Assembly: GCA_041686855.1 (NCBI GenBank)
Contig: JAWLDA010000001.1
Span: forward strand, 111,700-175,699
Reading direction: 5' to 3'
Source of the DNA: Limnochordia bacterium
GTDB lineage: Bacteria; Bacillota; Limnochordia; DTU080; RSA5
Length of the DNA stretch: 64,000 nucleotides
Positions 4,725 to 62,828 of this stretch are shown piece by piece. The notes under the pieces were generated by a model that was not told where the DNA came from, did no database searches, and was given only the letters and a program-made list of their open reading frames with translations. The position numbers were made by a program, and so were the translations under genes. Numbering within the stretch: the stretch's first letter is position 1; each line of letters opens with the position of its first letter.

Positions 4725-4784
4725 GAACGAGTAGCGTTCACAGCCCGTTTGAGCGCGTCACGACAACAGGTGAGTTAGGAGCGC

Positions 4785-9789: not shown

Positions 9790-10230
9790 CTACCACACGT
9801 GATCCATCGCCCCGGAGAGTGCACCAACATTGCCGCTACCCCACGCACTCCACGCTGTGGCTGCCGCGCTGACCGCCACTTGTGCTCCCGTGGCCACTAA
9901 TGCGATGGTAGTAGCTGTCCCGGTGAGAGCGCCAGTTAGCGTTCCCTTTCCGACTGCCTCGGCGAAACCACCGAAACTCTTTTCGCCCGGTGAGGTTGCG
10001 TAATAAAACGCGCTGCCAACAGCGCCTGCGATCGCACCGGCGACAATCGGATGAACCTCACCGGTGATCTGGTCCATTTCGCTCTCCGACAGTATTTCCA
10101 CATGCTCGGGTAACGTGCCGGGATTCGACACCTTGGACAAATCGCTGGAGGCAAAGCTCTGACTTGTCATCAAAGCCATTGCAACCAGCACAACGACGAT
10201 TCGGGAAGTTAACCCACGGATCATGCCCAT
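9790..10230 (-). CDS. small secreted glycine-zipper (GxxxG-rich) protein, bacteriocin-like
   Basis: Sec signal MGMIRGLTSRIVVVLVAMALMTSQSFA. Mature part is Gly/Ala/Thr-rich with GAIAGAVGS, GALTGTATT and ALSGA motifs. Start set at the internal MGM. The long ORF N-terminus is GC-poor and has no RBS. Confidence 0.55.
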   Translation of the reverse strand: MGMIRGLTSRIVVVLVAMALMTSQSFASSDLSKVSNPGTLPEHVEILSESEMDQITGEVHPIVAGAIAGAVGSAFYYATSPGEKSFGGFAEAVGKGTLTGALTGTATTIALVATGAQVAVSAAATAWSAWGSGNVGALSGAMDHVW

Positions 10231-10526
10231 TGTATAAGCCCCTTTGTGTTTTCCCCTCATAGGCGTGTGTCCATTGTAGAGGCGTTCTGATTTGGTATCA
10301 AATGCGATAAAGGCAGCAAATAGTCGATTACGGAAACGTTTCAATAGAAGACACAACACCGTAATCGCCTCCGTTCTCTCATTATCTCCGTTTCTCGCGG
10401 GACCCAGGGGCACTCTGCCGCGCATGAGTTTCCAGGAGAGTGTGTCGTTTCCCCGAAAGGTGATGCCAAAGACTGACGGGCGCACATCGGCGCATTTAGC
10501 GCACTTCATGGAGGAGCTGATCTCTG

Positions 10527-16972: not shown

Positions 16973-18267
16973 ATGAAGAGACGCTCATGGTTTCGTACGT
17001 TCTTTTTCGTTGTGAGTATGGTCTTGGTTATAGGAGCGGGAATCACTCAAGCAAAGATTGTGGTGTTGGCATGGCCGAGTATTGCTCAAATCCACGATTT
17101 GGAGGGTGCTGTTGAGCGGTTTAACACGTTGCATCCCGAAATTGAAGTCGAGTTTCTGTTGGGTGCGTCAAACTCTCGCGGTTACATCGAGCAAGTGATG
17201 ATTATGCAAGCGTCTGGCCAACAGGTGGACGTTGTGACCGCCATGCCTCACTGGGGTCTTCCATTGGCTATTGGTGACGGGACGACTGATCTCATCCCGT
17301 ACCTCAACGCAGCCGGTTTAAATGACTCTGATTATGCCCCCGGGACTTTGGATGGTTTCCGATGGAACTCGGAAGTTTGGGGGTTGCCGCTGAGCGTCCT
17401 GCTTTATGGTTCAGCATACAACGAGCGTCTCTTGACCGAGAGTGGGTTTGCTGCGCCTCAAGACTCTGATTGGACTTGGGAGACGGTTGTAGAAATGGCT
17501 CGTAGAACCACGTTGGAGATCGTTCAGGTGATGGCGTGGCAGACCAATATGGCGTCGACGCAGGCGGAAGTCCGCGAACACTCTTCCTCTATCCGCTTGT
17601 TAACCAAGCCGGCGGGCTCGCGTATGACCGATATGTGGATCCGCAGCGCGCGTTATGGACGGAGTCCTATGTAACCAGGGCCCTGGAATATTACCTTGGG
17701 CTTTTTGAGAATGGGTACGCTCCGCGTTCGGGGCACATACCTGCAAACATTGGCTGGAACGAAGGGAACGTTGCATTTCGAATGATTGCGGGACCAACGT
17801 CCTATGCAACGCTTGCAGAGTCGCTTGGGCATCGGGAAGTGAAGTTCATCCAAGCACCTCGCGGACCTGTTCGAGGCGGAAATCAAATCGCCGCGTATGG
17901 GGTCAATATGACGGCGACGAGTCAACATAAAGACGAAGCCTGGATGTTCATGGAGTATGTCTCGACTTCCGCGGCTGAGCTCCTTGAGAGATATCGTGAG
18001 CCTTCAAGACAGCGTCCATCCTCGTATATACCGAACATCCAACACTTTATGGAGCTGGACGACATTGCCGATCTTCCGGTGTGGCAAGCGCTCGCAGTGA
18101 ATCCGGACAATACTCCTCGATATGCACTCAGGGGCGAGTCGAGAATTAATGATGCGATTCAGAATGCCCTGTTAGACGTCGTGAATCAGGAACAAGCGCT
18201 ACCAGCGGCAGTGGAGAATATCCAACGTGTCGTTCAATCGATTTTAGACGAAGAACACAGCAGGTAA
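16973..18267 (+). pseudogene. ABC sugar substrate-binding protein gene disrupted by a frameshift near 17500-17540
   Basis: Two overlapping ORFs (16973-17674 and 17536-18267) each carry half of an SBP: signal peptide plus N-lobe, then a FLYPLVNQAGG...YY..LF C-lobe. Local GC is ~50%. Confidence 0.6.
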
Positions 18268-31361: not shown

Positions 31362-32750
31362 ATGAGCGATCGATACTCACAGTTGCTCGCAAACTACGCC
31401 GCCAATGTACAGAACGTTCCGGAAAATAGCCGTCACGAAGCGAAACGACGCTTGCTCGACACGCTCGGGGTGATGTACGCCGCTTCGGGCGAGGAGACTG
31501 TTGCCAAGTTTGCCGGATACGCGAAGCAGTTTCGATTTGATAACGGCGCCCGCGTGCTGGGCCTCCCGCACCGCGTGGCGCCCGAGATCGCGGCCTTCGT
31601 CAACGGTATGATGGCTCGTTACCTAGATTACAACGATACATACCTCTCGCTCGAACCGCTGCATCCCAGCGATATGATCCCTGGGCTCCTGGCGCTCGCG
31701 GAATGGAGGCAGGTCGACGGTAGGAGCTTGTTGGACGCCATAGCCGTCGCGTACGAGGTGAGCGTCACGTTGTGCGACGCTGCCAGCCTTCGCAAGCACG
31801 GCTGGGATCACGTCAACTATATCGGCATCGGTACGGCGTGCGGCGCGTCTCGCCTGCTCCACTTGAGCGCGGAGCAGACCGAGCACGCGATCTCGATCGC
31901 TGCACTCCCGCATGCGTCGGCCCGTCAAACCCGTGCAGGAGAACTCTCCAATTGGAAGGGAGCGGCCGCTGCCAACTCCGTGCGCAACGGTGTATTTGCC
32001 ACCTTGCTAGCGGAGCAGGGAGTCACCGGTCCGTTTCAACCGTTCGAAGGTGAGATGGCCTTTTTCAAGCAGCTGCTCAATGGCGAGCGTTTTGACGACA
32101 CAGTCCTTGAGCCTCTGGAGGCGCTGCAGCCACCGACCCGGATTCTCGACACGTACATCAAGTTGTACCCGGTGGAGTACCACGCGCAAAGCGCGGTGGA
32201 CATTGCGTTGGACCTCCGCAATGAACTCGGCGCCGAGGGGCTGAAGCACATCGAACATATCGCGATCGACACGTTTCGTGTGGCCTACGAGATCATCGCT
32301 AAAGATCCCGAAAAGTGGCGCCCAACGACTCGCGAAACCGCCGACCACAGCCTCCCTTACATCACGGCAGTCGCTCTGCTTGACGGGACGGTGACGCAGC
32401 GATCGTTCGATTCGGATCGTCTCTCGCACCCCATGATTCGGGAGTGGTTGGGAGAGAGAATGAGTCTCGAGGAGAAAGCGGAGCTCTCTGCGGGGTATCC
32501 GGAGGGGATTCCCAACCGAATTGCAATTCGAACCTCCGACGGGAAATGTATCGAGCGCACCGTCGCGTACCCAAGGGGGCACGCCAAAAACCCCATGACC
32601 GACGATGAAGTGACCGCCAAGTTTCGACAAAACGTCGAGGGTCGATTGCAACCGGAGGAGGCGGAGGCTCTTATTGCCGCCGTCTTGCAGTTTGACACGA
32701 GGACAGATATGGGGGCCTTCACGGATTTGTGGAAAGGAGTCAACCATTGA
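31362..32750 (+). CDS. prpD: MmgE/PrpD family protein (2-methylcitrate dehydratase-like)
   Basis: 462 aa. Family-typical segments (LDTLGVMYAA, HPSD, AALPHASARQTR). Context with a citrate synthase and a methylisocitrate lyase. Confidence 0.85.
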   Translation: MSDRYSQLLANYAANVQNVPENSRHEAKRRLLDTLGVMYAASGEETVAKFAGYAKQFRFDNGARVLGLPHRVAPEIAAFVNGMMARYLDYNDTYLSLEPLHPSDMIPGLLALAEWRQVDGRSLLDAIAVAYEVSVTLCDAASLRKHGWDHVNYIGIGTACGASRLLHLSAEQTEHAISIAALPHASARQTRAGELSNWKGAAAANSVRNGVFATLLAEQGVTGPFQPFEGEMAFFKQLLNGERFDDTVLEPLEALQPPTRILDTYIKLYPVEYHAQSAVDIALDLRNELGAEGLKHIEHIAIDTFRVAYEIIAKDPEKWRPTTRETADHSLPYITAVALLDGTVTQRSFDSDRLSHPMIREWLGERMSLEEKAELSAGYPEGIPNRIAIRTSDGKCIERTVAYPRGHAKNPMTDDEVTAKFRQNVEGRLQPEEAEALIAAVLQFDTRTDMGAFTDLWKGVNH

Positions 32751-33892
32751 AACCCGAGGAGACCGTCAACACAGGCTTAGATGGCGTTGTCGCGACGAGT
32801 ACCTCCGTCTCCTGTCTTGATACCGTCGCTGAGCAGATCGTGGTCCGTGGCTACGATCTGATTGACCTAGCCACACACGCTCAATACCTCGACGTAGCTC
32901 ACTTGTTACTGTTTGGTTCGCTACCGACGGCTCACGAACGAAACGGGTTTGCCGAACAGATTTGGAACGAGATGTCGCTGCCTGAAGAGGTCGAAACGCT
33001 CCTGGGATTGGTGCCGCCCCCAATGGCGCCGATGGATGTGTTGCGCACGGCGCTCTCGTTCTTGGCCGGATTCGATCCTGTTTTGCGTGAGAATACTGAG
33101 CCTGCCAATCGGGAGAAAGCCGTACGGTTGCTGGCCAAACTGCCCCTCGTGGTCGCGCACGGATACCGTTTGCAGCACGGGCTGCCGACGGTGGCGCTCG
33201 ACCGCGGCATCGGTTACGCCGCCAACTTCCTGAGGTTGATGACAGGCGAGACACCTTCGTCCGAGGCTGCCGCGCTCTTTGATATGACGCTCTCGTGCTA
33301 CAGTGAGCACGAGTTGCCCAACTCGACATTCACCGCCCGGGTGATCGCCTCGACGTTGAGCGACCTCTACGGTGCGATGGTCGGAGCGGTGGCGTCTCTC
33401 AAGGGTCCATTACATGGCGGCGCCAATGAGGCGGCGGCCGACATGCTCGTTGCAATTGGGGACCCGAGCAAGGCGCGGGCGTACGTCCTTGATAAGCTCG
33501 GTCGCAAAGAGCGGATCATGGGATTTGGTCATCGGGTGTACATGCGTCGAATCGATCCACGGGCGGCCCTGCTGGAAGGGCACATCGAACCGCTGGCCCA
33601 GTCGGTCCCCGGAGGCGTGGAGCTCCTCGAGACGTATCGCATCGTGGCGCAGACGATGCGCGATGAAAAGGGGTTGCACCCTAACGCCGACTTCCCAATC
33701 GGACTCATCTACCATCTCCTAGGGATCCCGCGACCGCTCTACACGCCAATCTTCTTTGTCGCACGTGCCGCCGGGCTTGGCGCTCACGTGATCGAGCAAC
33801 ACGCACAAAACCGGCTCTACCGTCCTCGGGCCCAATACGAGGGTCCCCGAGGTCTCTCGGTGGTGCCTGCGTCGGAGGGGAACGCCCAGTGA
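32747..33892 (+). CDS. prpC: citrate synthase family protein (2-methylcitrate synthase)
   Basis: GFGHRVY motif and HPNADFPIGLIY segment. TTG start with AAGGAG 8 bp upstream, overlapping the prpD stop. Confidence 0.8.
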   Translation: MKPEETVNTGLDGVVATSTSVSCLDTVAEQIVVRGYDLIDLATHAQYLDVAHLLLFGSLPTAHERNGFAEQIWNEMSLPEEVETLLGLVPPPMAPMDVLRTALSFLAGFDPVLRENTEPANREKAVRLLAKLPLVVAHGYRLQHGLPTVALDRGIGYAANFLRLMTGETPSSEAAALFDMTLSCYSEHELPNSTFTARVIASTLSDLYGAMVGAVASLKGPLHGGANEAAADMLVAIGDPSKARAYVLDKLGRKERIMGFGHRVYMRRIDPRAALLEGHIEPLAQSVPGGVELLETYRIVAQTMRDEKGLHPNADFPIGLIYHLLGIPRPLYTPIFFVARAAGLGAHVIEQHAQNRLYRPRAQYEGPRGLSVVPASEGNAQ

Positions 33893-34782
33893 GCACCACA
33901 TCCGGACGTCTACGTGAACTACTCTTAGGCTCCAAAACACTTCTCGTACCGGGGTGTTACGACGCGCTGGGCGCCCGCATTCTGGAGAAAGCGGGCTTTC
34001 AGGCGATCTACATGAGCGGCTCTGCGGTGACGGCAAGCCTCCTGGGCTACCCCGACCTTGGACTCCTGAGTTTCCAGGAGATGGTGGATCAAGCCCGTCG
34101 CATCGCACTGGCTGTCGATGTTCCTGTTATCTCAGACGCCGACACCGGGTATGGGAACGCCGTCAATGTATGGCGCACGGTGCGAGAATTCGAGGCGGCC
34201 GGAGTCGCCGGGATTCACCTTGAGGATCAGGAGCTGCCCAAGCGGTGTGGTCACTTTGAAGGGAAACGACTCGTCGATGAGGCGGAGATGGCTAAAAAGC
34301 TGGAAGCGGCTTTGGCTGCTCGAAGGAGTGACGACTTCGTCGTCATCGCACGCACGGATGCCCGAGCCGTCGAGGGAATGGAGGGAGCGCTTCGACGGGC
34401 GAAACTCTACAGGTCGGTGGGAGTCGACATGCTCTTTGTCGAAGCGCTTGTCAGCGTCGATGAGATGAAGCAGCTCAACGAAGCCTTTGAGGGATTCCCA
34501 CTTCTGGTGAACGTGGTGGAAGGAGGGAAGACCCCGCAACTCCCGTTTGAGACGTACGAGCGTCTCGGTTACCGGGTGGTCTTGTATCCGACCGCGAGCG
34601 TGCGCGCCGTGATGAAGAGCTTTCAGGAGCTGGCCAGGGAGCTCGCGACCCATCGGACGACGGCGGGCTCGCTGGAGCGCTTGGTCGCATTCGACGAACG
34701 GAATCAGATCACGGGGCTCGCTGCCTTCGAGGCGTGGGAGCGCCGATTTGCTGTTGAGGAGACCGGAGATGGAACGCAGTGA
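33889..34782 (+). CDS. prpB: isocitrate lyase/PEP mutase family (2-methylisocitrate lyase)
   Basis: KRCGH motif and ISDADTGYG motif. ATGA-type overlap with prpC. Confidence 0.8.
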   Translation: MSTTSGRLRELLLGSKTLLVPGCYDALGARILEKAGFQAIYMSGSAVTASLLGYPDLGLLSFQEMVDQARRIALAVDVPVISDADTGYGNAVNVWRTVREFEAAGVAGIHLEDQELPKRCGHFEGKRLVDEAEMAKKLEAALAARRSDDFVVIARTDARAVEGMEGALRRAKLYRSVGVDMLFVEALVSVDEMKQLNEAFEGFPLLVNVVEGGKTPQLPFETYERLGYRVVLYPTASVRAVMKSFQELARELATHRTTAGSLERLVAFDERNQITGLAAFEAWERRFAVEETGDGTQ

Positions 34783-35578: not shown

Positions 35579-35700
35579 TCCTGTAACCCGTTGTCGCCAC
35601 CTTGGAAACCACCTGAGTCAACATACGGCTCAGCAGACGGGTCAACACATGGGTCAACACGCTGATTTCGCCCACTCACCAAAAGGAGCGTCGACCGCCA

Positions 35701-37644
35701 ATGAGCGTGCCCTACGATGAAAGGCTCTGGACCAAGCACGAGGATCCCATTGCCGATTCCCTCGAAAGACTACCCCACCTGCAGCTAAGGGAGTACCCGG
35801 AGCGGCTTGAAGCGTTTTGGGCGCTCTTCGAAGATGTGCAACTTGACGGCGTGGCCGTCTGCCCGAACCTGCGGATGCCGGCCCGCGATGGCGTCGGCCT
35901 TGGGTGTGACATCTACGTGCCGGCCCGCAGCGGTCTACCTCTACCGGGACCGTGGCCGGTCGTCTTGGAGCGTACACCCTATGGGAAAGACCGAGCCGGA
36001 CAGGTGATGACGGCTCGGCATCTCGTCAAGTCGGGATACGCCGTCATCATTCAAGACGTGCGCGGTCGATACGCCTCGGAAGGTCAATTTTACGCCTTCG
36101 GTGACGAGGGGCTTGATGGTTACGACACCATCGCGTGGATTCAGTCCCAACCGTGGTGCAACGGCAAAGTCGGCACAATGGGAATATCGTATGCCGGAGC
36201 GACACAGACGGCCGCCGCTGCAACGAATCCCCCCGGACTCGCCGCTCAGATTGTGACGCAAGGACCGTTTAACTATCACACGGGCTCGATGCGTCAAGGC
36301 GGGTGCCTGGAGCAGCGCTTTTACGCGTATGCGTTTCGCATGGCCAAAGAGAGTCGGGAGGCTATGGCGGACGCTGGATTGCGCAGCGCACTGGAGGCGA
36401 GTTTTGAGGACGTGGAGAGTTGGTTGCTGAGGGCGCCGATCCGCCCGGGAGCGACGCCGCTGGCCCGCATTCCTTCATATGAGGCGTGGGTGAAGGATCT
36501 GTACACACATGGGAGCTTCGACGAGTACTGGCAACGCCCGGGTTACACCGTCGAGCCGTTCCTCGACAACCATGCAGACGCACCGACCATCTTCTTGGGT
36601 AGCTGGTACGACAGTTATGCACGCAATACGTGCGATAGTTTTGTTGAGCTCTCCAAGCGAAAGAAAGGGCCGTTTAAGCTCATCATGGGTCCGTGGCTGC
36701 ACGGGAAGGTGAACACGGAGGTGAGCGGCGACGTCGGCTTTGGTTCTCACGCCGTCCTTGGATACGACACCCTTCACAAACGGTGGTACGATGCGGTGCT
36801 GAAAGGCGACGATGACGGAATCCTTTCGGAGCCGCCCGTGAAAATCTTTGTGATGGGCGGCGGGAGCGGTCGCAAACGCCTCGACGGCCACCTCGATCAC
36901 GGGGGACGCTGGCGATTTGAGAATGAATGGCCGCCGGCTCGGTCGGTGAACACGCCTTTTTACATCCACGCAGGCGGAAGGTTGAGCGTTGATCCACCGG
37001 CGATAGACCCGGAAGCGGTTGAAGCGAAGACGGTCTACGCGTTTGACCCTGAGCGTCCGGTCCCCACCATTGGGGGGTGTTTGTCGGCAGCGGACGATAT
37101 CATGCCGCCGGGAGGCTTTGATCAGACGGCGCATCTCGGGATGTTGGGCGCCGAGGACGAGCTCCCTCTTGCCGCTCGAGCAGACGTGCTCGTCTTCCAA
37201 ACCGACGTGTTGGAGCGAGACGTGGAAGTGACCGGTCCAATCCACGTTAAACTCTACGTTTCATCGGACGCGGTGGATACGGACTTCACGGCGAAGCTAA
37301 TCGACGTGTACCCGCCCAACCCCGACTACCCGCTGGGGTACGCGCTGAACATACAGGACGGCATTCAACGAATGCGCTATCGAGAGGATCGCAGCCGTGA
37401 GGTGTTCATGACACCGGGAGACGTTTACGAAGTGACAATCTCGTTGTATCCGACAAGCAACCTCTTTGTGGCCGGCCACAAGATTCGCCTCGACATCTCG
37501 AGCAGCAACTTTCCACGTTTTGACGTCAACCCCAACACCGGTGATCCGTTGGGCCAACATCGACGGTACCGAGTGGCGGAGAACACCGTGTGGCACGCAC
37601 AGGGAAGGGCGTCTCACGTGGTCCTGCCCATCGTACCTGCATAG
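35701..37644 (+). CDS. CocE/NonD family hydrolase (S15 X-Pro dipeptidyl-peptidase-like alpha/beta hydrolase)
   Basis: LERTPYGK...GYAVIIQDVRGRYASEG...GYDTIAWI...GKVGTMGISYAG motifs. C-terminal beta-sandwich domain. Confidence 0.8.
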   Translation: MSVPYDERLWTKHEDPIADSLERLPHLQLREYPERLEAFWALFEDVQLDGVAVCPNLRMPARDGVGLGCDIYVPARSGLPLPGPWPVVLERTPYGKDRAGQVMTARHLVKSGYAVIIQDVRGRYASEGQFYAFGDEGLDGYDTIAWIQSQPWCNGKVGTMGISYAGATQTAAAATNPPGLAAQIVTQGPFNYHTGSMRQGGCLEQRFYAYAFRMAKESREAMADAGLRSALEASFEDVESWLLRAPIRPGATPLARIPSYEAWVKDLYTHGSFDEYWQRPGYTVEPFLDNHADAPTIFLGSWYDSYARNTCDSFVELSKRKKGPFKLIMGPWLHGKVNTEVSGDVGFGSHAVLGYDTLHKRWYDAVLKGDDDGILSEPPVKIFVMGGGSGRKRLDGHLDHGGRWRFENEWPPARSVNTPFYIHAGGRLSVDPPAIDPEAVEAKTVYAFDPERPVPTIGGCLSAADDIMPPGGFDQTAHLGMLGAEDELPLAARADVLVFQTDVLERDVEVTGPIHVKLYVSSDAVDTDFTAKLIDVYPPNPDYPLGYALNIQDGIQRMRYREDRSREVFMTPGDVYEVTISLYPTSNLFVAGHKIRLDISSSNFPRFDVNPNTGDPLGQHRRYRVAENTVWHAQGRASHVVLPIVPA

Positions 37645-37679
37645 ATTGTGTCGTTGCGCGTTACGGTCAAGAGTCATAT

Positions 37680-37985
37680 CACCTGCAGGCCGACGTCCGG
37701 CCGCCAGCTGACGTCCGGCTGTAGGCGGACCTCTGGCCATAGACGGGACTCACGACGGCTGCAGACCGACTTTCGGCTGCAGGCGGGACTCACGACGGCT
37801 GCAGACTGACTTTCGGCCGCAGGCGGGACTCAGGGCGCCCGAAGACCATCTTTAGGCTACAGGCGGGACTCACGACGCCCGAAGACCATCTTGTGGCGGT
37901 AAGCTGTCAACTGGCTGCAGGCTGACGTCCATTCTTAGACGGGAGTCACGACGACTGCGAGCTGATTCGGTGGCAAGCGGCCTCC
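37680..37985. repeat. degenerate ~38-40 bp tandem repeat, ~5 copies, core RGRCGGGACTCACGACG
   Basis: Cores at ~37742, 37780, 37820, 37860 and 37938. The variable halves are pairwise similar. Not CRISPR-like: no uniform spacers. Confidence 0.7.
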
Positions 37986-37990
37986 GGCCA

Positions 37991-38760
37991 AGCAAGGTGC
38001 CGAAATGGCGACTGATGCCCTTCTTGCGGGGAGTGATTGCACAAGGACGAGGAATCGCCCCCCACCAGAAAGGCAACAACGCCGTGTTTGCCCCGATTTT
38101 CGCCGGATTGTCGTGTCTGGGCGCGACGTCAAACGGATGGCGTGCAGGTGTACGTGTAGGGCATGATCCAAACGGCCAGCTAGGAGCGCTGACCGTTTTC
38201 CACGGATGCGCGCCAATTTCAAGCAAGGTGCCGAAATGGCGGCTGATGCCCTTCTTACGGGGAGTGATTACACAAGGGCGAGGAATCGCCCCCCACCAGA
38301 AAGGCAACAACGCCGTTTTCGTCCCGATTTTCGTCGGATCTAACGTCTGGTCGCTACGTCAAACGGATGGCGTGCAGGTGGACGTACAGGGCATGATCCA
38401 AACGGCCAGCTAGGAGCGCTGACCGTTTTCCACGGATGCGCGCCAATTTCAAGCAAGGTGCCGAAATGGCGGCTGATACCCTTCTTGCGGGGAGTGATTG
38501 CACACGGACGAGGAATCGCCCCCCACCAGAAAGGCAACAACGCCGTTTTCGTCCCGATTTTCGCCGGATCGTGGCGTCCGGGCGCGACGTCAAACGGATG
38601 GCGTGCAGGTGGATGTGCAGGTGGACGTGTAGGGTATGATCCAAACGGCCAGCTAGGAGCGTTGGCCGATTTCCACGGATGTGCGTCGATTTTAAGCAAG
38701 GTGCCGAAATGGCGGCTGATGCCCTTCATGCAGGGAGTCATTGCTCATGAACGAGGAATC
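37991..38760. repeat. ~230-243 bp tandem repeat, 3.3 copies, ~95% identical, last copy degenerate
   Basis: Copies start at ~37991, 38222, 38452 and 38695 with AAGCAAGGTGCCGAAATGGCG. Each copy contains AAGGTG-N6-ATG plus a 35-57 codon Arg-rich ORF. Periods 231/230/243 are not all multiples of 3. Confidence 0.8.
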
Positions 38761-38843
38761 TTCTAATAGACCCAAAAGCACTGAGAGCGTGGATACTGGT
38801 TCAACTGTGAGTTCAAAGTCTTTACCTAGTGACCAGACGGAAC

Positions 38844-39020
38844 CTCGGAGTCTGGAAACCTGGGAGTCTCGGAACCCCGGAGTCTGGAAACCTGGGAGTC
38901 TCGGAACCTCGGAGTCTCGGAACCCCGGAATCTCGGAACCCCGGAATCTCCGAACCCTGGAATCTCCGAACCCCGGAATTCCGGAATCTCCGAACCCCGA
39001 AACCTCGAAGCCTCGAAGCA
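38844..39020. repeat. ~16-bp microsatellite (GGAATCTCSGAACCCY / GGAGTCTCGGAACCYC), ~11 copies
   Basis: Direct head-to-tail 16-bp periodicity seen in sequence. Low-complexity ORFs on both strands are considered artefacts. Confidence 0.75.
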
Positions 39021-39181
39021 GCGATTTTCGCCTCCATGTTTCGACCAGTCCCGGTAAATACCCAAAAGCTTTTAGAAAGACAAGGAAGAACTGGTCCGTA
39101 GGAGAAAAGTGACAAACAAGTGTATTGGGGGAAATTGCAACAAATCGACACCTACACTTCACAAAGGAGCGAGTCACTAAT

Positions 39182-40216
39182 ATGAAGGCCGGTATCGTTG
39201 GAACTGGTTGGGTTGCTGGCGAGCACGTAGCTGCCTATCAGGAGAATCCGCACATCGAAGTGAAGGGGATCGCCAGTCGCACCCGTGAAGGCGCCGAGGC
39301 TAAAGCTGCTGAATGGGGCTTCGACGGCAAGGTTTACGACACGGTCGACCAACTCATCGAAGATGACGAGATTAAGGTCGTCTCCATCTGTTCGCCACCG
39401 GATGTTCACGCCGAACAGGTCATCAAGTGTGCCCAGGCCGGCAAGCATGTTGTCATTGAGAAGCCTGTCGCCCTCACCCGTGAGGATGTATGGGCCATGG
39501 AAGAGGCCGTCGCCAAAGCGGGCGTCAAGAGCGTCGTCAGCTTCGTGCTACGGTGGAATCCACTCTTTGAAACGATCAAGGCTTTGTTGGCGGACGGTGC
39601 GCTCGGCAATGTCTTTTACTCCGAGTCTGACTATTGGCACTGGGTAGGGCCGCACTACAAACAGTATCACTGGGCCAAGACCAAGAAGGCCGGCGGGAGC
39701 AGCTTGCTCTCTGCGGGTGTTCACGCTGTCGATGCGCTCCGGTGGTTCTCCGGTGAGATTGTCGAAGTGAGTGGATACTCCGCGCCCAAGTGGGAGGGCT
39801 CCGACTACGAATTTGATCCTAATATCGTAGCTGCTCTCAAGTTCGAAAACGGTGCGATCGGCAAAGTCTCGTCGTCGCTGGAGTGCCAAACGCCTTACAT
39901 CTTCAACATTCAACTCATGGGTGACCAAGGCACGTTGCGCAACAACAAGCTCTTTAGTAAGTCCAAGCTGCCGGGGCAGACGGATTACGCCGAGATTCCG
40001 ACGATCCTGCCTGACAGCGGTGACGTGACACATCACCCGTTCAAGGGCCAGATCAACCACTTTGTTGAGTGCATCCTGGAGAATAAGGAGTCGCACTGCA
40101 ACTTAGCCGATGCTGCCAAGAGCATGGATGTCTGCTTCGCAATTGACGAATCCATTGCCACCGGCCGACCGGTGAAGCTTCCGCTGGACCGTTCGAGTGA
40201 GAGGGTTGGAGCGTGA
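39182..40216 (+). CDS. Gfo/Idh/MocA family oxidoreductase
   Basis: MKAGIVGTGWVAGEHVAAY Rossmann motif. IEKPVA motif. AAGGAG 13 bp upstream of Met20. Confidence 0.85.
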   Translation: MKAGIVGTGWVAGEHVAAYQENPHIEVKGIASRTREGAEAKAAEWGFDGKVYDTVDQLIEDDEIKVVSICSPPDVHAEQVIKCAQAGKHVVIEKPVALTREDVWAMEEAVAKAGVKSVVSFVLRWNPLFETIKALLADGALGNVFYSESDYWHWVGPHYKQYHWAKTKKAGGSSLLSAGVHAVDALRWFSGEIVEVSGYSAPKWEGSDYEFDPNIVAALKFENGAIGKVSSSLECQTPYIFNIQLMGDQGTLRNNKLFSKSKLPGQTDYAEIPTILPDSGDVTHHPFKGQINHFVECILENKESHCNLADAAKSMDVCFAIDESIATGRPVKLPLDRSSERVGA

Positions 40217-41502: not shown

Positions 41503-41525
41503 ATGAAGAGCGCGGATAATTGAAG

Positions 41526-41578
41526 GGCGCTGACGTGGAATGGCACTGACGAGGGCGCTGACGTGGAATGGCGCTGAT
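41526..41578 (+). promoter_or_regulatory. 24-bp direct repeat x2 (GGGCGCTGACGTGGAATGGCRCTGA) upstream of hypothetical gene
   Basis: Two near-identical copies separated by 4 bp, 20-70 bp upstream of the 41596 start. Candidate regulator binding site. Confidence 0.35.
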
Positions 41579-41595
41579 GAAGAAGGGCTCGTGAG

Positions 41596-42762
41596 ATGAC
41601 GATCAATGCGTGTATTCCTATCGCCGTTCAGGTGGTGATCGACGACGTCGGCTGGTGGTCGGGCGCGAACGATAGTGAGCGGGGCGGTCCCTACCGCACG
41701 GGTATCGATCGGGATCACGTACCCGCAGATTACGAAGCGATCGTTGAGTTAGGCAGGCGGCTCGGGGTGCGTCCCCAGGCCGCCCTCATCCTGTGTGAAT
41801 GGGACCGGACAAACATATTGCGCAATCTCCCGACAGCAACGTGGATGGGCGCAGCATGGGATAATCGCAAGTGGGTCGGACCGTGGCTCGAGGAAGCGGC
41901 TCGCATCATGGGCGAGAACTCCGAGTACATAGAGTTGACGCTTCACGGCATCGGACACGAGTACTGGCAGGACGGCGCCTTTACCCGGGCGGAATGGTAC
42001 GATTCCGAGTATCGCATGCGTCCGGAGTCCGATGTACGAGCGCGACTCGAGCTCTTTGCCGAAATCATGCGGCAGAATGAGTTGGGACCTCTCCCGACCT
42101 CAATGGTGCCCCCTGCCTACAAATACCGCTTTCGTGATCCGAGCGGGTTTGCCTCGATGATGCGTGAGAACGGCATCCAAAGCGTTACGACGGTGACCCC
42201 GCACATGCTGAAGCACACCGGGCAAACGATGGAATCGCCCTGGTTTGGCATCGACGCCGGCCTCCTCATCGTTGAGTGGGGAGCGTCGGTGACGGGGCGG
42301 GGAGGCACCCTTCCCTGGTACGTGATCGAGCCCGACCTGTCGGAGACACGTGAAGTGGAAGGGCCGACCCTGGGACTTCACTGGCCCAACCTTCTTCACA
42401 CGGATCCGGCGCGCAACTCCGAGGTGATCGACCGGTGGGTGGCGTATCTTGGAGGGTATCGTGACCGCTTTGATCGGATGCTCGCCCGGGACTCAGTCCA
42501 ATGCCACACGCAGCTTTTGTATCAGTGGGGAACGGACGTAAGGGTCGACGACGAGCGCACGGTCCATTGCGATTTCACCCGTCTAGACCAGCTTGGCTAC
42601 CAAGGGCTAGGCGATGAGTTTGTCTTGCGCGTCGAGACGCCGCGTACAGCCTCTCGTACACTGCGATTTGCAGCAGATCTGAGCGCGACGCCTGTGGGAG
42701 ACGGAGCCGCAGGCGGGTTTGCATCCTTTAGAGTCCGGCGGCGCCAAGGCGCGGGAGCGTGA
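41596..42762 (+). CDS. hypothetical protein (Trp-rich, HGIGHEYW motif); no family recognised
   Basis: 388-aa ORF with good codon usage, sitting between the M20 and Gfo genes. I could not assign a family from sequence alone. Confidence 0.6.
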   Translation: MTINACIPIAVQVVIDDVGWWSGANDSERGGPYRTGIDRDHVPADYEAIVELGRRLGVRPQAALILCEWDRTNILRNLPTATWMGAAWDNRKWVGPWLEEAARIMGENSEYIELTLHGIGHEYWQDGAFTRAEWYDSEYRMRPESDVRARLELFAEIMRQNELGPLPTSMVPPAYKYRFRDPSGFASMMRENGIQSVTTVTPHMLKHTGQTMESPWFGIDAGLLIVEWGASVTGRGGTLPWYVIEPDLSETREVEGPTLGLHWPNLLHTDPARNSEVIDRWVAYLGGYRDRFDRMLARDSVQCHTQLLYQWGTDVRVDDERTVHCDFTRLDQLGYQGLGDEFVLRVETPRTASRTLRFAADLSATPVGDGAAGGFASFRVRRRQGAGA

Positions 42763-43934: not shown

Positions 43935-44056
43935 TACTACTTGTTCTCTTTCGTGTTTCCGGCTTTACTCTTCTTTCTCGCTCTCTTCTTACTCTGCACT
44001 GCCATTAGGTTTGCCGGTCCGCCGGTCCGCCGGTTGTCTGTCGCAGGCCTCTGTGA

Positions 44057-56427: not shown

Positions 56428-57309
56428 ATGGATTATCTCCAACGACTCGAGAATCGCAGTATTCACATCCTGCGCGAGGCCTACAGCGGCTTTCGCCAAT
56501 TGGGCATGCTCTGGTCCATCGGCAAGGATAGCACCGTCTTGCTGTGGCTGGCTCGCAAAGCCTTCTTTGGGCACGTTCCTTTCCCGCTCATTCACGTCGA
56601 CACCAGTTACAAGATCCCCGAAATGATCGAGTACCGTGACCGCTTGGCCCGCGAGTGGCGCCTCGATATGATCTACGGCCAAAACCAGGCTGCGCTCGAG
56701 GCCAAGCAGACCTTCCCCGAAGGCAACGCAACGCGCCTCGAGTGCTGCAAAGCGCTTAAGACACAAGCGTTGATCAACACGCTCAACGGCGAGTGGCCCC
56801 GCTTTCGACTCAACCACGAGATGGGCGAGTACGAGCCCGACGCCAATACGGAGGCGTACACCGGAGTGATTGTCGGGGTCCGCTCAGACGAAGAAGGGAC
56901 TCGCTCTAAGGAGCGTTACTTCTCGGCCCGCGGCGCCAACAGCGAGTGGGATTTCGGCGATCAGCCCCCTGAGTTTTGGAACCAGTACAAAACCGACTTC
57001 GCACCGGGGACACATGTGCGGATTCACCCCTTACTCGACTGGACGGAGTTGAACATTTGGGAGTACATCGACCGGGAGAAGATTCCCGTGGTCTCCCTCT
57101 ACTTTGACCAAGGCACCGGGACGCGCTACCGCTCGCTTGGGTGCGCTCCGTGTACCAAACCCGTGGAGTCGACTGCTCGCAACGTGAAGGAGATCATCGC
57201 AGAGTTGGCGACGGGGAAGTTTGCAAATGTCGCCGAGCGATCTGGAAGGGAGCAGGACAAAGAAGATGGCGGTGGACTTGAAGCGCTTCGCAGAGAAGGG
57301 TACATGTAA
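56428..57309 (+). CDS. cysD: sulfate adenylyltransferase subunit 2
   Basis: PP-loop motif SIGKDS. Full-length similarity to the CysD pattern. Start of the sulfate-assimilation operon. Confidence 0.9.
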
Positions 57310-59161
57310 CGAGTCGCACTCCGTTCCGGAAGATATGAACATCGTGATCGTGGGTCACGTCGACCACGGCAAGAGCACGATCATTGGCCGACTCCTCGCC
57401 GACACCGATGCCCTGCCTGAGGGAAAATTGGAGCAGGTGCGTGAGAGGTGCCGACGCAACAGTAGGCCTTTTGAGTACGCCTTTTTGTTGGATGCGCTCA
57501 AAGATGAGCAGGATCAAGGGATCACCATCGACGCCGCGCGGTGTTTCTTTAAAAGCTCCAAACGCAGGTACATCATCATCGACGCTCCGGGCCATATCGA
57601 GTTCCTCAAGAACATGGTGACCGGCGCCGCTCGTGCCGAGGCGGCACTCCTCGTCATTGACGCGACGGAGGGCGTTCAGGAGAATTCGAAGCGGCATGGT
57701 ACGCTCCTCTCCATGCTCGGCATCTCACAGATCTCCGTCCTGATCAACAAGATGGATCTTGTCGGCTACGATCAGGGTGTCTTTGATCGGGTCGTGGAGG
57801 AGTATCGGACGTTTCTCCACTCCATCAACGTGGAGGCATCCTCGTTTGTGCCTGTCAGCGGTATGGCCGGCGACAATATAGCGATCCGTTCCTCCTCCAT
57901 GCCATGGTACAGCGGAGCTCCCCTCCTTGAGGTCCTGGACGACTTCATGAATCCACCTTTACCGATCGACAAGCCATTGCGGATGCCGGTCCAAGGGGTC
58001 TACCGCTTCACGAATGACGGCGATCAACGAAGGATTGTCGCGGGAACGGTGGAGAGTGGCCGCCTCAGAGTAGGCGACACGATTCGCTTCTCGCCCTCGG
58101 GCAAGCAGAGTCAAGTGAAGTCGATCGAAGCGTTTAACGCACCCCAACCGCCGACAGAGGCAGTAACTGGGTGGGCGACGGGTTTTACACTCTCGGAGCA
58201 AATCTATATCACCCGCGGCGAGATCGCATCGCGGGTCGATGAAGAGCCGCCCGCGGTCGCCTCGGCGTTGCGGGTGAATCTCTTTTGGCTAGGCAAAAAG
58301 CCGTTGCAGATAGGCAAGGTGTACCACCTAAAGCTCGGAGCGGCCAAAGTTGCCGCTCGGCTTGCCGAGGTTCGCGAAGTGCTCGACGCCTCCAACCTTA
58401 CGCGCGACTCCAAGCGCGAGCGGGTCGACCGCCACGAAGTCGCAGAGTGTGTGCTGCGGCTCAGTGCCCCGGTCGCCTTCGATACCGTCGACACAAATGA
58501 GCACACGTCTCGTTTTGTGATCGTCGATGACTACGAGATCGCAGGTGGCGGTATCATCCTTGAACCCTACCAGGAGAGTGTGGTGTGGCATCAGGGGCTG
58601 GTTACGTACGAGGACCGCTGTAGAGTCCTTGGCCACGAAGGTCTTGTCCTTTGGTTCACTGGGCTCTCCGGTTCCGGAAAGTCGACGATTTCGGCCGCCG
58701 TCGAGCGCCATCTGAACGCGGCCGGCCGGGCGACTTATCGGTTGGACGGCGACAACATCCGTCACGGTCTCTCAAGTGATCTGGGATTTAGCGGAGCGGA
58801 CCGGGACGAGAATATTCGCCGGATCGCAGAGGTTGCAGCGCTCTTCGCCGACGCAGGGTTGATCACGCTCGTCTCGTTTATATCACCGACCGCGGCGATG
58901 CGGCAGTTTGCCCGTGAACGAGTTGGCGCGGCTCGATTTGTCGAGATCCACGTGAAAGCTGACATCGAGACGTGCGCCAAGCGGGACCCCAAGGGAATGT
59001 ATCAGCGAGCCCGCCGCGGTGAGATCAAGGAGTTCACCGGTGTCTCGGCGCCCTACGAAGCGCCGAATTCTCCGGATCTGGTTGTCGAAACCGATGCTCG
59101 CTCAGTGGAAGTGTGTGTGGCTGACGTGTTGGAACTCGTACGAGCAAGGGAAGGAGCTTAA
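57266..59161 (+). CDS. cysNC: bifunctional sulfate adenylyltransferase subunit 1 / adenylylsulfate kinase (CysN-CysC fusion)
   Basis: GTPase P-loop [10 protein letters not shown]-terminal APS kinase domain with P-loop GLSGSGKST. Start (Met16 of the ORF) is chosen by analogy to the CysN N-terminus length. It overlaps the cysD 3' end, so translational coupling is likely. Confidence 0.8.
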
Positions 59162-60804
59162 TGATGGCCAAACGAGAGCGAACGAGAGCGGTGCGACGAG
59201 AGAAGCCGTTGACGTGGGAAGAGGTACGCTCCCGAAACTCGGTCGAACGGATCAAGCACGAGAAGCAACCGTTCGACCTGATCGACGAGCTACCCCGATT
59301 GGCCGAGACGCCTTACGAGGCCATTGATGAAAACGACATCCTGCGCCTACAGTGGTGGGGACTCTACCACGACAAGCCCAAGATCGGGCACTTTATGATG
59401 CGAGTGAAGATCCCCGGGGGCGTCCTGACGGCTGAGCAGCTGCGCGTGATTGGTCGCCTCTCGGTCGAATTCGGTCAAAATAAAGGCGAGCTCACCACCA
59501 GACAGTGCATTCAACTGCACAACATCGAACTCCCCAACTTGCCGGAGATCTTCCAGATCATGAAAGAGGCGGAGCTCACGACAGCCGGGGCGTGCGGAGA
59601 TATCCTGCGTAACATCACGAGCTGCCCCGTAGCCGGAATCGATCCTCATGAACTCTTTGACACCCGCCCCGTGATCGACGAATTGGCCGCTTTCTTCTAC
59701 GGCAATCGGGAGTACAGCGATCTCCCGCGCAAGCACAAGTGGACCCTAGCGGCCTGCCCACACCACTGCAATGTACCGGAGATTCACGATATCGGCTTGA
59801 TCGGTACGGTACAGGACGGGGAGGTCGGCTTTGCCATCACAGTCGGCGGTGGACTCTCTACAGCGCCGCGCATCGCTCAGTCCTTTGGCGTCTTTGTCCG
59901 ACCCGAAGAGGCGCGGGAGGTGCTTCAGGGCCTCCTCGACATTTGGAGTAACGATCTGACCTACCGCCGATCCCGCGGTAAGGCTCGGTTTAAGTTTATG
60001 GTCGACGATCACGGTCCCGACGGTGTGCGCGAGCGCCTCGAATCACACCTGGGACGTGCGCTCACCCCTCTCAAGGAGGCGCCAACGCCGATCGGACGCA
60101 CCGATCACATGGGAGTGCACGCCCAAAAGCAACAAGGACTGCACTACATCGGCTTCCCCGTCTTCCCCGGACTCATCACCGGTGAGCAAATGATGGCGGT
60201 AGCGGAGATTCTCGCGGAGTACGGCAACGATTTTCGCATCACCCGCGAGCAAAACTTCATCCTCACCGGAATTGCCACGGCCGACGTGGAGCAGGTAATC
60301 GCCCGGATGGCTGCGCTCGGCTTCTCGCTTGACGTCAACCCCGTGCGCGGTCACAGCATCGGCTGCACCGGCAATCCCTACTGCAACTTTGCCGTGGGCG
60401 AGACCAAGCCGCGCCTCGTCCGCCTCATTGATCACTTGGAGGCGCGATTTGGCGAGGCCATCGCCGACTTGCGCTTTCATCTCGACGGCTGCCCCCATGC
60501 CTGCGGTCAGCATTTCATCGGAGACATCGGTTTTCAAGGGACCACCAAGCGCACTGACGATGGCAAGATTCAGGCGTATGACATTTTCCTTCGGGGCGGT
60601 ATGGGCAAAGAGGCTGCGATCGGCAAACCGATTTTGCGCCGGGTCGCTACCGATGACTTGGAGCTTTACGTGGAGCGGCTCCTCTCACTTTACCTGAGTG
60701 AGCGGCGTTCTGAGGAGACGCTTCAGCAGTTTTGCGCCGCCAAGAGTGACGAGGAGATCGTCGCTGTCATGGAAGGCGCGCTCTCCGAAAGGAGCGTAGG
60801 CTGA
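59161..60804 (+). CDS. sir: ferredoxin-dependent sulfite reductase (siroheme hemoprotein, NirA/Sir family)
   Basis: Nitrite/sulfite reductase ferredoxin-like half-domains and siroheme-Fe4S4 Cys cluster (CPHAC...C motifs). GGAAGGAG 6 bp before ATG. Confidence 0.85.
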   Translation: MMAKRERTRAVRREKPLTWEEVRSRNSVERIKHEKQPFDLIDELPRLAETPYEAIDENDILRLQWWGLYHDKPKIGHFMMRVKIPGGVLTAEQLRVIGRLSVEFGQNKGELTTRQCIQLHNIELPNLPEIFQIMKEAELTTAGACGDILRNITSCPVAGIDPHELFDTRPVIDELAAFFYGNREYSDLPRKHKWTLAACPHHCNVPEIHDIGLIGTVQDGEVGFAITVGGGLSTAPRIAQSFGVFVRPEEAREVLQGLLDIWSNDLTYRRSRGKARFKFMVDDHGPDGVRERLESHLGRALTPLKEAPTPIGRTDHMGVHAQKQQGLHYIGFPVFPGLITGEQMMAVAEILAEYGNDFRITREQNFILTGIATADVEQVIARMAALGFSLDVNPVRGHSIGCTGNPYCNFAVGETKPRLVRLIDHLEARFGEAIADLRFHLDGCPHACGQHFIGDIGFQGTTKRTDDGKIQAYDIFLRGGMGKEAAIGKPILRRVATDDLELYVERLLSLYLSERRSEETLQQFCAAKSDEEIVAVMEGALSERSVG

Positions 60805-61634
60805 TGGCGCAACCAGAGGTGTCTCGGCAGGGGGAAGCCGAGCGTGAATTGCTTATGGATGACTACGAAGCGGGTGAGCTCTCGGTCTTTTTCGAAGACA
60901 AGGAGCCAGAGGACGTCCTCGAATGGGCGTTTGAGCGCTTTGGGCCGGAGCGGTTCGCTCTGGTCTCCAGCTTTCAGGCTGAGGCCGTAGTCCTCATCGA
61001 CATGGCGTGGCGGATCAACGACCAGGTGCGCGTGGTAACCGTCGACACCGGACGCCTGCCCCAAGAGACGTACGAACTGATTGACAGGGTCCGTGATGAG
61101 TACGGTATTCCAATCGAAGTGGTCGTGCCTGATTCGCGCATGACACAAAAGATGGTCTCACGCAACGGCGTCAACCTTTTTTACAAGAGTGTCGAGATGC
61201 GGCTCCTCTGCTGTCACGTGCGCAAAGTGCTCCCGTTGACGGGGATCTTGGAGGAGCTCGATGGTTGGGCGACGGGGTTGAGGCGCGGTCAGTGGGCCAC
61301 CCGCGGTAACATTCGCAAGGTGGATATCGATCACGATCACGGTGGGCTGGTGAAGGTGAGTCCTCTGGCGGACTGGAGCGACGACGCGGTCTGGGAGTAC
61401 ATCCGGGACAATGACGTGCCGTACCATGCGCTCTACGACAAGGGGTTCACCAGCATTGGGTGTGCGCCGTGCACGCGTCCGGTTGAGCCCGGCCAAGATG
61501 CCCGCAGTGGCCGGTGGTGGTGGGAGAACGGCGCACCGAAGGAGTGCGGCATGCACTGCCCGATCGAGACGGGTGGTTTTGAGCATGAGGTTGAGGCGAT
61601 CCTTGGGGAACGAGCGGAAATGAGGGGCGAGTGA
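60804..61634 (+). CDS. cysH: adenylyl-sulfate (APS) reductase, thioredoxin-dependent, [4Fe-4S] type
   Basis: PAPS/APS reductase fold. The CC (LLCCHVRK) plus KECGMH motifs are diagnostic of the APS-reductase subtype. Confidence 0.85.
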   Translation: MAQPEVSRQGEAERELLMDDYEAGELSVFFEDKEPEDVLEWAFERFGPERFALVSSFQAEAVVLIDMAWRINDQVRVVTVDTGRLPQETYELIDRVRDEYGIPIEVVVPDSRMTQKMVSRNGVNLFYKSVEMRLLCCHVRKVLPLTGILEELDGWATGLRRGQWATRGNIRKVDIDHDHGGLVKVSPLADWSDDAVWEYIRDNDVPYHALYDKGFTSIGCAPCTRPVEPGQDARSGRWWWENGAPKECGMHCPIETGGFEHEVEAILGERAEMRGE

Positions 61635-61635
61635 G

Positions 61636-62094
61636 ATGGCACTGGAGTTAAGTGAAGGTCAACAGGCGTTGATAGTTGACGAGGCGGCGGCCTTTGCCGA
61701 GCGTGTAGAGAATCCGGCGATCAAAGAAGCGTACCACCGCCTGCGCGACGAAGCGTCAGCCGGGGCGCTCTCTGATGAGTTGGACGAGGCGTGCGCGAAC
61801 ATGCTCGAACTCGGACTCAGCAGCGGGCGCATCCGCGCCTTGCACGGCGCCCATGCAGAGATGGAGGCGACCAAACTCTTCCGTAAGACGGCTAAAGGTC
61901 GTGAGCTCGACTCACAATTTGAGGCGGCCAACCGGATGTTTTCGGCGCTTGCGGGCCATACGGTCCGCAAAGTGACTCTCTCTGCTCGAGGTCCAGGGAT
62001 GTACACCCTTGTCGTGGAGACTGAGGAATCCCGAGTGGTCACCAACGTGGGCCAAAACGGTGTCGATGTGCGCAGCGTCGAAGTCGCGTTGTGA
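61636..62094 (+). CDS. hypothetical acidic 152-aa protein embedded in the sulfate-assimilation/siroheme operon
   Basis: Tightly packed: 2 bp after the cysH stop, GTGA overlap with the next gene. No recognisable motif. Confidence 0.5.
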   Translation: MALELSEGQQALIVDEAAAFAERVENPAIKEAYHRLRDEASAGALSDELDEACANMLELGLSSGRIRALHGAHAEMEATKLFRKTAKGRELDSQFEAANRMFSALAGHTVRKVTLSARGPGMYTLVVETEESRVVTNVGQNGVDVRSVEVAL

Positions 62095-62828
62095 TAGGGG
62101 AGAAGAACGTGAGCAAAAGCCAAAGCGAGTATGTACAACGGATCGGATGGGACGGGCCGATGACCACCTATCCGGTCTTCCTCGTCGGCCTCGCCCGGCG
62201 TCGGTGCGTCGTTGTTGGGGGAGGAACGATTGCCACGGAGAAGGTGCATGGACTCCTCAATGGTGGAGCAACGTGTGTCGATGTCGTCAGTACTGAGCTC
62301 TCTCCCCAGCTCCGATCCCTCCTCGAGGCGGGTCGCGTCCGTCATGTAGGGGAGCGCTTCGTTCCAGAGCACGTCGACGGCGCCTTTTTGGTGATTGCTG
62401 CGACCGACGACTCTCACGTGAACGGCGCAGTCTTTGAGGCCGCCGAAGCGCGTGGGGTATTGGCCCAAGTTGTGGACGATCCGCCTCGCTGTGCATTCAT
62501 CATGCCGTCGATTGTGCGTCGGGGTGATCTCACGGTGGCGATTTCGACGGGAGGGGCGAGCCCGGCGCTCGCCTCTCGCCTGAAGGAGCGGCTGCAGGAG
62601 GAGCTCGGTGTGGAGTATCAACGATTCGTGGCCTTGGCCGGTCGCATTCGCCCGATGGTGATGGATCGCATCAAGGACCCCCAGGTGCGTAAGTCGCTGT
62701 GGTACCAAATCGTCGACTCGGAGATATTGACGCTCCTGCGCGAGGGGCGTGAAGCCGATGCCATGGCGGTTGCCGAGCGGCTGATCGACGCAGCGGTGAA
62801 CGAGAGCCGTCAGGCGGTGGGATCGTGA
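62091..62828 (+). CDS. precorrin-2 dehydrogenase / sirohydrochlorin ferrochelatase (SirC/Met8, CysG N-terminal-domain-like)
   Basis: YPVFLVGLARRRCVVVGGGTIATEK aligns with the CysG N-terminus (LPIFCQLRDRDCLIVGGG). Alternative start at Met24 (62160). Confidence 0.75.
   Translation: MIGEKNVSKSQSEYVQRIGWDGPMTTYPVFLVGLARRRCVVVGGGTIATEKVHGLLNGGATCVDVVSTELSPQLRSLLEAGRVRHVGERFVPEHVDGAFLVIAATDDSHVNGAVFEAAEARGVLAQVVDDPPRCAFIMPSIVRRGDLTVAISTGGASPALASRLKERLQEELGVEYQRFVALAGRIRPMVMDRIKDPQVRKSLWYQIVDSEILTLLREGREADAMAVAERLIDAAVNESRQAVGS

Follow-up and report, generated by a model that had tools for sequence, protein, structure and literature searches.

A 230-bp tandem array in an intergenic spacer of a Limnochordia bacterium, probably a lineage-specific non-coding minisatellite

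Introduction

Bacterial minisatellites, the VNTRs of MLVA typing, consist of units of more than 9 bp that are arranged head to tail in intergenic DNA and include a diverged edge copy; they differ between strains within a species and have no dedicated machinery nearby. The tandem array described here, from the genome of a Limnochordia bacterium, shares the head-to-tail arrangement, the intergenic setting, the diverged edge copy and the lack of machinery, and it may share the variation between strains. It differs in that its copies are 7–9% diverged and not near-identical, and its unit of 230 bp is among the longer ones for bacterial intergenic repeats and VNTRs. Mycobacterial interspersed repetitive units (MIRUs) also form tandem repeats in the spacers of co-directional genes and contain short open reading frames (ORFs) whose start signals invite a small-peptide reading. 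MIRUs, however, measure 46–101 bp, occupy tens of dispersed loci and carry ORFs that are phased with the flanking genes, whereas the array studied here has a 230-bp unit at a single locus and ORFs that are neither conserved nor phased.

REP/BIME elements and REPINs resemble the array in being intergenic hairpin repeats downstream of a gene that sometimes form tandem clusters, and the RNA hairpins of REP/BIME elements can stabilise the upstream message. REP units are 20–40 nt long, occur in hundreds of dispersed copies and are accompanied by a RAYT gene; in contrast, in the window (the whole stretch of 64,000 nucleotides that was analysed) we found neither a second copy in the remaining 62.5 kb nor a RAYT-like gene. 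Tandem sRNA arrays such as Qrr, PrrF1/2 and LhrC1-5 share with the array a unit of about 100–250 nt, the tandem arrangement in a spacer and internal hairpins, but each of their units has a recognisable promoter and intrinsic terminator and is conserved across species, three properties that we did not see for the array. Integron attC arrays (CALIN) and CRISPR loci are similar in displaying regularly spaced imperfect palindromes. We rejected the former, given that GTTRRRY and RYYYAAC motifs occur once each, only in the variable block of copy 2 and not at hairpin ends, and the latter, given that the units of the array directly abut each other, are homologous along their entire length and leave no unique spacers.

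Results

Structure of the array and its surroundings

The array is located in a 1.5-kb intergenic gap (37645–39181) between two co-directional genes and was delineated by Tandem Repeats Finder at 37989–38760 with a period of 230, 3.3 copies and a score of 1173. An invariant 21-mer, AAGCAAGGTGCCGAAATGGCG, is found at 37990, 38221, 38451 and 38694 (0 expected by chance) and marks the starts of three full copies and one partial copy in an (AB)3A structure. The features of the gap and its flanks are as follows.

35701–37644, + strand: Peptidase_S15/PepX_C (CocE/NonD-type) hydrolase, upstream neighbour
37683–37975, unstranded: 40-bp (20+20) tandem family with its core at 37744–37892 and degenerate copies on either side
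37990–38760, unstranded: tandem array of (AB)3A structure (Tandem Repeats Finder, 21-mer, copy alignment)
37990–38220: array copy c1, 231 nt
38221–38450: array copy c2, 230 nt
38451–38693: array copy c3, 243 nt
38694–38760: array copy c4, a 67-nt partial copy that ends after ..CGAGGAATC
38602–38633, unstranded: 12-nt internal tandem duplication (GTGCAGGTGGAT/C), the source of the 243-nt length of c3
38806–39021, unstranded: 16/8-bp tandem family with its core at 38838–38977 (8.8 copies), downstream of the array
39182–40216, + strand: Gfo/Idh/MocA oxidoreductase (Gfo344), downstream neighbour, with an M20 peptidase next

Much of this anatomy had been described in an earlier sequence-only reading of the locus. 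The existence of the array, its unit lengths of 231, 230 and 243 nt (which match the spacing of the copy starts), the degeneration of the last copy and the flanks, comprising a CocE-type hydrolase, a Gfo oxidoreductase and 2 other repeat families (40 bp and 16 bp), were all borne out, and the 4 copy starts that it gave (37991, 38222, 38452 and 38695) are each one base too high. Its estimate of about 95% identity between copies was too generous: The full copies are pairwise 91–93% identical, and the c4 stub is 84–87% identical to the others. Transitions outnumber transversions about 3:1 among the differences between copies, and alignment columns 1–21, 61–96, 137–173 and 197–211 form invariant blocks among the full copies. 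The 12-nt duplication in c3 looks like a sign of continuing slippage.

The 3 repeat families of the gap (230-bp, 40-bp and 16/8-bp) are unrelated among themselves. A CTGACGTSS motif common to the neighbouring repeats was considered and rejected, with 8 occurrences against 3.6 expected that are mostly the repeat copies themselves. Short tandem repeats are also present in several other spacers of the window, which otherwise holds ordinary chromosomal genes for catabolism and sulfate assimilation; the window ORFs that were scanned included no integrase, transposase, reverse transcriptase or RAYT-like gene.

A lineage-specific segment between conserved genes

The closest relative that we found, a sister species represented by Logan contigs L006 and L007, has a Gfo344 of 90% amino acid identity and the gene order hydrolase, 25 nt, a 404-aa Gfo/Idh/MocA gene, 245 nt, Gfo344 and M20 peptidase. 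Nucleotide homology between the two species ends 16 nt before the stop codon of the hydrolase and restarts at 39060, which delimits two further features.

37629–39059, unstranded: lineage-specific segment of 1431 nt, unrelated to the 1381 nt (404-aa gene plus spacer) at this position in the sister species
39060–39181, + strand: block upstream of Gfo344 with about 76% identity to the sister species, downstream of all repeats and likely the promoter/5′UTR of Gfo344

Around 90% of the 1.43-kb lineage-specific segment is made up of the 3 tandem-repeat families. We detected no similarity between its 1431 nt and the 1381 nt of the sister species at either the DNA or the protein level, no remnant of the 404-aa gene in the gap (tblastn; blastn with word size 7) and no tandem repeats at this position in the sister species. 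In a relative at 85% identity, the upstream neighbour is different again.

Variation between two assemblies of the same species

A second assembly of the same species, GCA_041685055.1, contains a 3.2-kb contig (L001) that carries the downstream oxidoreductase with identical sequence. This contig begins within the array and includes 1.3 copies with one copy-to-copy junction as well as the junction between the array and its flank, while another contig (L003) stops 56 nt short of the array, where the short-read assembly breaks. Since GCA_041685055.1 has a copy-to-copy junction as well, the tandem arrangement does not stem from a fault in a single assembly; the array, present in both known strains, is therefore securely established, and uncertainty is limited to its exact copy number.

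The flanks of the two assemblies diverge by about 0.2% as opposed to 5–16% within the array: L003 differs from the flank in the window at 9 of 3910 nt, and of the 30 mismatches between L001 and the window, about 4 fall in the roughly 2900 nt that do not belong to the array (our own count). The penultimate copy of the second assembly is nearest to copy 2 of the window (95%) with five private variants, and 11 of the 69 positions compared between the terminal stubs are different, each stub having private variants. The second assembly matches the window at 100% in the 40-bp and 16-bp arrays, copy number included, but not in the 230-bp array, and general repeat instability alone does not account for this contrast. 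The array appears to change quickly between strains, and the simplest candidate reading of these differences is VNTR behaviour, in which copies from a larger or different set would have undergone exchange and conversion. The 7–9% divergence among copies in turn indicates that the array did not arise by accident very recently. Mutagenesis similar to that of DGRs was rejected as a source of these differences, which are mainly G/A and C/T transitions and not adenine-specific, and no reverse transcriptase is present.

Searches for the repeat unit in other sequences

The 62.5 kb of the window outside the gap contain no further copy of any of the 3 repeat families, and a tblastx comparison of the gap with the rest of the window gave only short out-of-frame chance matches. 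The conserved blocks of the unit, searched as exact sequences in GTDB genomes (one per species), had only a chance match in a Bacteroidetes MAG with nothing similar beyond the 21-mer. In JGI metagenomes, a 27-mer of the unit had zero matches, and two matches to the 21-mer lie inside AT-rich coding sequence and were dismissed as unrelated. Three exact patterns of the unit were absent from IMG/VR, and plasmid and phage sequences gave no match to the whole gap by blastn.

Searches for RNA genes were similarly negative. A tRNA/tmRNA scan of the window found none, and Rfam gave nothing at gathering score and nothing relevant at E<=10, with the best matches (E=0.17–0.5) being eukaryotic and viral families. 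Between 37400 and 39400, we found 0 promoter-like sites, scanning for the sigma-70 consensus only, and 0 terminator-like sites.

Hairpins within the unit

Two hairpins recur in each full copy of the array.

37996–38094, also 38227–38325 and 38457–38555, folding on either strand: H1, a long imperfect palindrome of about 36 pairs
38170–38198, also 38400–38428 and 38643–38672: H3, a short hairpin (AAACGGCCAGC / GCTGACCGTTT) with the 7-nt loop UAGGAGC

These hairpins are the basis of an explanation that we regard as unlikely while ranking it ahead of the other alternatives, namely that the array is a tandem structured noncoding RNA, either as a set of sRNA genes or as cis hairpins in the 3′ region of the hydrolase transcript. 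By analogy with REP/BIME elements, such hairpins would stabilise, terminate or insulate transcripts, or they would bind a protein. H1 is predicted to fold with −37 to −42 kcal/mol on the + strand and −47 kcal/mol on the − strand in all 3 copies, far more stably than dinucleotide shuffles (z of −2.3 to −4.1 on + and −3.8 to −4.8 on −). It also varies less than the remainder of the unit, with 6 of 96 variable columns in columns 1–96 compared to 26 of 134 elsewhere among the full copies (Fisher p=0.006), and this uneven variation could, together with the invariant blocks, reflect constraint and not conversion tracts. Both substitutions in the H1 stem give G-U pairs on the minus strand, and the 7-nt loop of H3 contains GGA, a trinucleotide found 23 times on + but 9 times on −.

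Several observations weaken this reading. If the same substitutions are placed at random, H1 is equally stable in 8–23% of trials (p=0.08–0.23), and the 3–4 near-identical copies compared contain one compensatory pair only, whose helix is disrupted in copy 2. Preferences for one strand conflict, with H1 favouring minus and the 3′ half of the unit favouring plus, and the unit as a whole is less distinct from shuffles on the + strand (z of −0.2 to −2.1 in the three copies; −4.5 on −, calculated for copy 2 only). H3 is followed on the + strand only by TTTTCC and therefore fails the terminator scan. A function as CsrA sponge was rejected given that GGA and ANGGA are not significantly more frequent than in shuffles (p=0.15 and 0.27, respectively), and there is neither a relevant Rfam match at E<=10 nor a promoter or terminator consensus. 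For the tandem sRNA or riboswitch-like elements suggested in the sequence-only reading, we thus find a significantly stable hairpin but no RNA family, no promoter or terminator consensus and no significant structure-preserving variation.

A related and slightly less probable proposal is that the unit is an undescribed structured-RNA or single-stranded-DNA element built around the quasi-palindrome of about 36 bp. Such an element might be a tandem sRNA or protein-sponge family specific to the species, or a hairpin that drives its own amplification in place. If it were true, the invariant blocks would be the functional core of the element and the high divergence between strains would reflect an active process of diversification or conversion.

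A long open frame through the array

The unit also contains a reading frame that stays open over long distances.

37970–38413, + strand: long ORF (SKVPKWRLMPFLRGV...) that resumes at 38458–38766 after a 1-nt deletion in copy 2

This frame could in principle be a decayed or young protein-coding gene with 77-aa repeats that was disabled by the 1-nt deletion in copy 2, which is its sole break, but we consider this improbable. Two of the unit lengths, 231 and 243, are divisible by 3, which keeps the frame open across copies 1, 3 and 4. Among all six frames, it scores best in codon usage (+0.06 to +0.10), and a gene caller annotated it as a 132-aa prediction (P0001) that is already in public databases. 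Of the 14 columns that vary among the first 67, 9 are third positions of this frame, and its pN/pS is 0.33–0.40.

However, its codon score falls at the 5th percentile for real genes and at the 95th for off-frames, and an open frame of 77 codons has a chance of about 7% per frame at this GC content (our own estimate). The phase bias has p of about 0.02, or about 0.05–0.07 when corrected for three phases (our own calculation), and does not extend into the second half of the unit, in which c1 and c3 differ by 12 nucleotides and, as a result, by about 10 residues. Neither of the two possible starts is preceded by a Shine-Dalgarno (SD) sequence. The ORF found only itself among 5.8 billion proteins, no frame had a Pfam or PDB match and AlphaFold predicted no confident fold (pLDDT 39.7). 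The frameshift is also present in the second assembly, where it sits in the penultimate copy and only a 22-aa terminal ORF is left; the ORF structure is thus not kept between strains. We conclude that the long frame is probably a chance open frame that was multiplied by the repeat. The earlier dismissal of the long ORFs as artefacts therefore probably holds, while its argument, a unit length that is no fixed multiple of 3, is weaker given that 231 and 243 are such multiples.

Selfish elements and assembly artefacts

About equally improbable, or marginally more so, is a selfish hairpin element of the REPIN/MITE kind that multiplied locally and may have further copies in other parts of the genome. 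The quasi-palindrome of about 100 nt in each unit, the intergenic position between co-directional genes and the rapid sequence change between strains would fit such an element. On the other hand, the hairpin is internal to the unit and not terminal, target-site duplications are lacking and no transposase or RAYT-like gene turned up among the scanned ORFs of the window. The lack of any copy or fragment in the surrounding 62.5 kb would be unusually sparse for a family with hundreds of copies, and none of the collections searched contains a match. The sequence-only reading had proposed a selfish satellite and had named dispersed REP/MITE-like units as an outcome that would speak against its interpretation: No such units occur in the window outside the gap (62.5 kb), and of its proposal the term “satellite” is nearest to the evidence, while “selfish” finds no copy outside the array to lean on.

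It is very improbable that the array or its copy number is an assembly artefact, a possibility also raised in that reading. The short-read MAG breaks at the array and the two assemblies disagree within it, but the independent assembly contains the junctions between copies and between array and flank, and the differences between copies are mostly transitions as in real divergence.

Small ORFs at the start of each copy

As the sequence-only reading had observed, each copy contains an SD-like AAGGTG ahead of an ATG (4 of 4 copies) that opens a small, arginine-rich ORF; we count five nucleotides between the two.

38005–38166, + strand: small ORF of copy 1, 53 aa, judged non-coding
38236–38343 (35 aa), 38466–38639 (57 aa) and 38709–38750 (13 aa), + strand: its counterparts in the other copies, judged non-coding

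Beyond this start signal, the small ORFs do not behave like a gene. Their length and C-terminus are different in each copy, 9 of 14 variable columns among the first 67 are codon position 1 of the ORF and their pN/pS is 0.55–0.85. Using a codon log-likelihood model trained on 25 genes of the window, the small ORFs score −0.10 to −0.28 per codon, where real genes average +0.25 and off-frames −0.28. The ribosome-binding sites of genes in the window are mostly of the GGAG/GGAGG type as opposed to the AAGGTG of the array, and the ATG is predicted to be paired in the stem base of H1. An exhaustive HMMER search of 1.84 billion representatives returned three matches with E of 1e-4 to 1e-5 (P0124–P0126), all of which are ORFs through other tandem arrays and were rejected as relatives, with E-values that sum 4–5 non-independent repeats; for a single unit, the alignment reaches 28 bits with an E of the order of 10^3 (our own estimate). 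P0126, which at first seemed promising with a period of about 74 aa, was rejected along with the others. The neighbourhood encodes ordinary catabolic enzymes (hydrolase, oxidoreductase and M20 peptidase) and no maturation or immunity genes.

We conclude from these sequence features that the small ORF is in all probability not a gene and judge the SD-ATG-ORF arrangement to be a chance feature of the unit that was multiplied along with it. A tandemly amplified small-peptide gene (leader peptide, RiPP precursor or toxin), the first suggestion of the sequence-only reading, is accordingly the least probable of all explanations that we weighed, with only the conserved AAGGTG and ATG in its favour and the variable lengths, off-frame codon usage and lack of a credible homologue against it.

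Discussion

The anatomy of the array, its absence from relatives, its lack of a coding signal and its difference between strains were all directly established. We find them best explained by a lineage-specific, non-coding minisatellite of (AB)3A structure that arose by unequal exchange or slippage in a dispensable spacer, a reading to which we assign a probability of roughly 60%. It is favoured because of the (AB)3A form with its diverged edge copy, the 12-nt slippage product and the location in a repeat-rich segment, and because the unit is absent from relatives and from the sequence collections searched and shows no signal of a coding sequence or an RNA family. Points that count against it are the uneven variation among full copies, the stability of H1 on both strands, the 7–9% divergence of copies in an array that both known strains retain, and the identity between strains of the neighbouring short-period arrays.

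Both the mechanism of amplification and the selective neutrality of the array are what we infer from this pattern. In the proposed scenario, unequal homologous exchange or replication slippage between direct repeats A...A would amplify the segment between them to form (AB)3A. The outermost, truncated copy would escape homogenisation and thus diverge most, and the long quasi-palindrome of the unit may favour fork stalling and slippage.

If the hairpin were transcribed and functional, the unit would represent a new and very narrow RNA family, but nothing in our data requires that. As a minisatellite, the array is a further instance of a feature type that is already known. It also calls for caution in genome annotation, with the repeat multiplying a chance SD-ATG-ORF fourfold and turning a chance open frame into the 132-aa P0001, and the same repeat breaks short-read assemblies. 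Where the sister species has a gene, the lineage studied here has 1.4 kb built from three unrelated tandem-repeat families, and the locus would thus be a clear example of intergenic DNA that was built by local amplification and not by pseudogene decay or mobile-element insertion.

Sequence turnover at the repeat locus

The position that is occupied by 1.43 kb of tandem repeats in the window (37629-39059) holds a 404-aa Gfo/Idh/MocA gene in the sister species that is the closest relative found (L006:1781-2995). The two segments are close in length (1381 nt in the sister species versus 1431 nt in the window), and no homology between them was detectable. Compared with the second assembly of the same species (GCA_041685055.1), the 40-bp family (37683-37975) and the 16/8-bp family (38806-39021) that flank the 230-bp array are 100% identical, copy number included, whereas the 230-bp copies differ by 5-16%.

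Immediately 3' of the array, TAATAGACCCAAAAGCACTGAGAG (38766-38790) resembles TAAATACCCAAAAGCTTTTAGAAAG (39061-39086), the beginning of the conserved block upstream of the oxidoreductase gene; this likeness suggests that the 16-bp-repeat segment could be the product of a duplication of promoter-proximal DNA.

Several further intergenic spacers of the window genome carry short tandem repeats (units of 8-28 bp, 1.9-4.4 copies); on the sister-species contig, the corresponding orthologous spacers are free of them:
4708-4734, short tandem repeat
35617-35660, short tandem repeat
41522-41588, short tandem repeat
44013-44034, short tandem repeat

Gene content of the window

Among the products encoded in the 64 kb are at least 12 Gfo/Idh/MocA paralogues, together with six SBP_bac_1 proteins and five TIM barrels of the xylose-isomerase-like kind. 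The window as a whole yielded neither mobile-element genes nor tRNAs nor Rfam families. It also contains two metabolic gene clusters, two overlapping plus-strand ORFs that may be a single frameshifted gene, and three sizeable ORFs that gave no Pfam match:
31362-34782, methylcitrate cluster
56428-63946, sulfate-assimilation cluster
16973-17674, + strand, ORF with a match confined to the N-terminal half of an SBP_bac_1 solute-binding protein
17536-18267, + strand, ORF without family, overlapping the preceding one
41596-42762, ORF of 388 aa, no Pfam match
61659-62708, - strand, ORF of 349 aa, no Pfam match
9790-10599, - strand, ORF of 269 aa, no Pfam match

Repeat-derived proteins in public collections

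Public protein collections contain entries that are evidently ORFs running through tandem DNA arrays, namely P0001 and the three weak HMMER matches to the small Arg-rich ORF (P0124-P0126), among which P0001 (window 38015-38413) is the one derived from the 230-bp array. When the query is itself repeat-derived, the internal repeats of such array-derived "proteins" inflate HMMER E-values.
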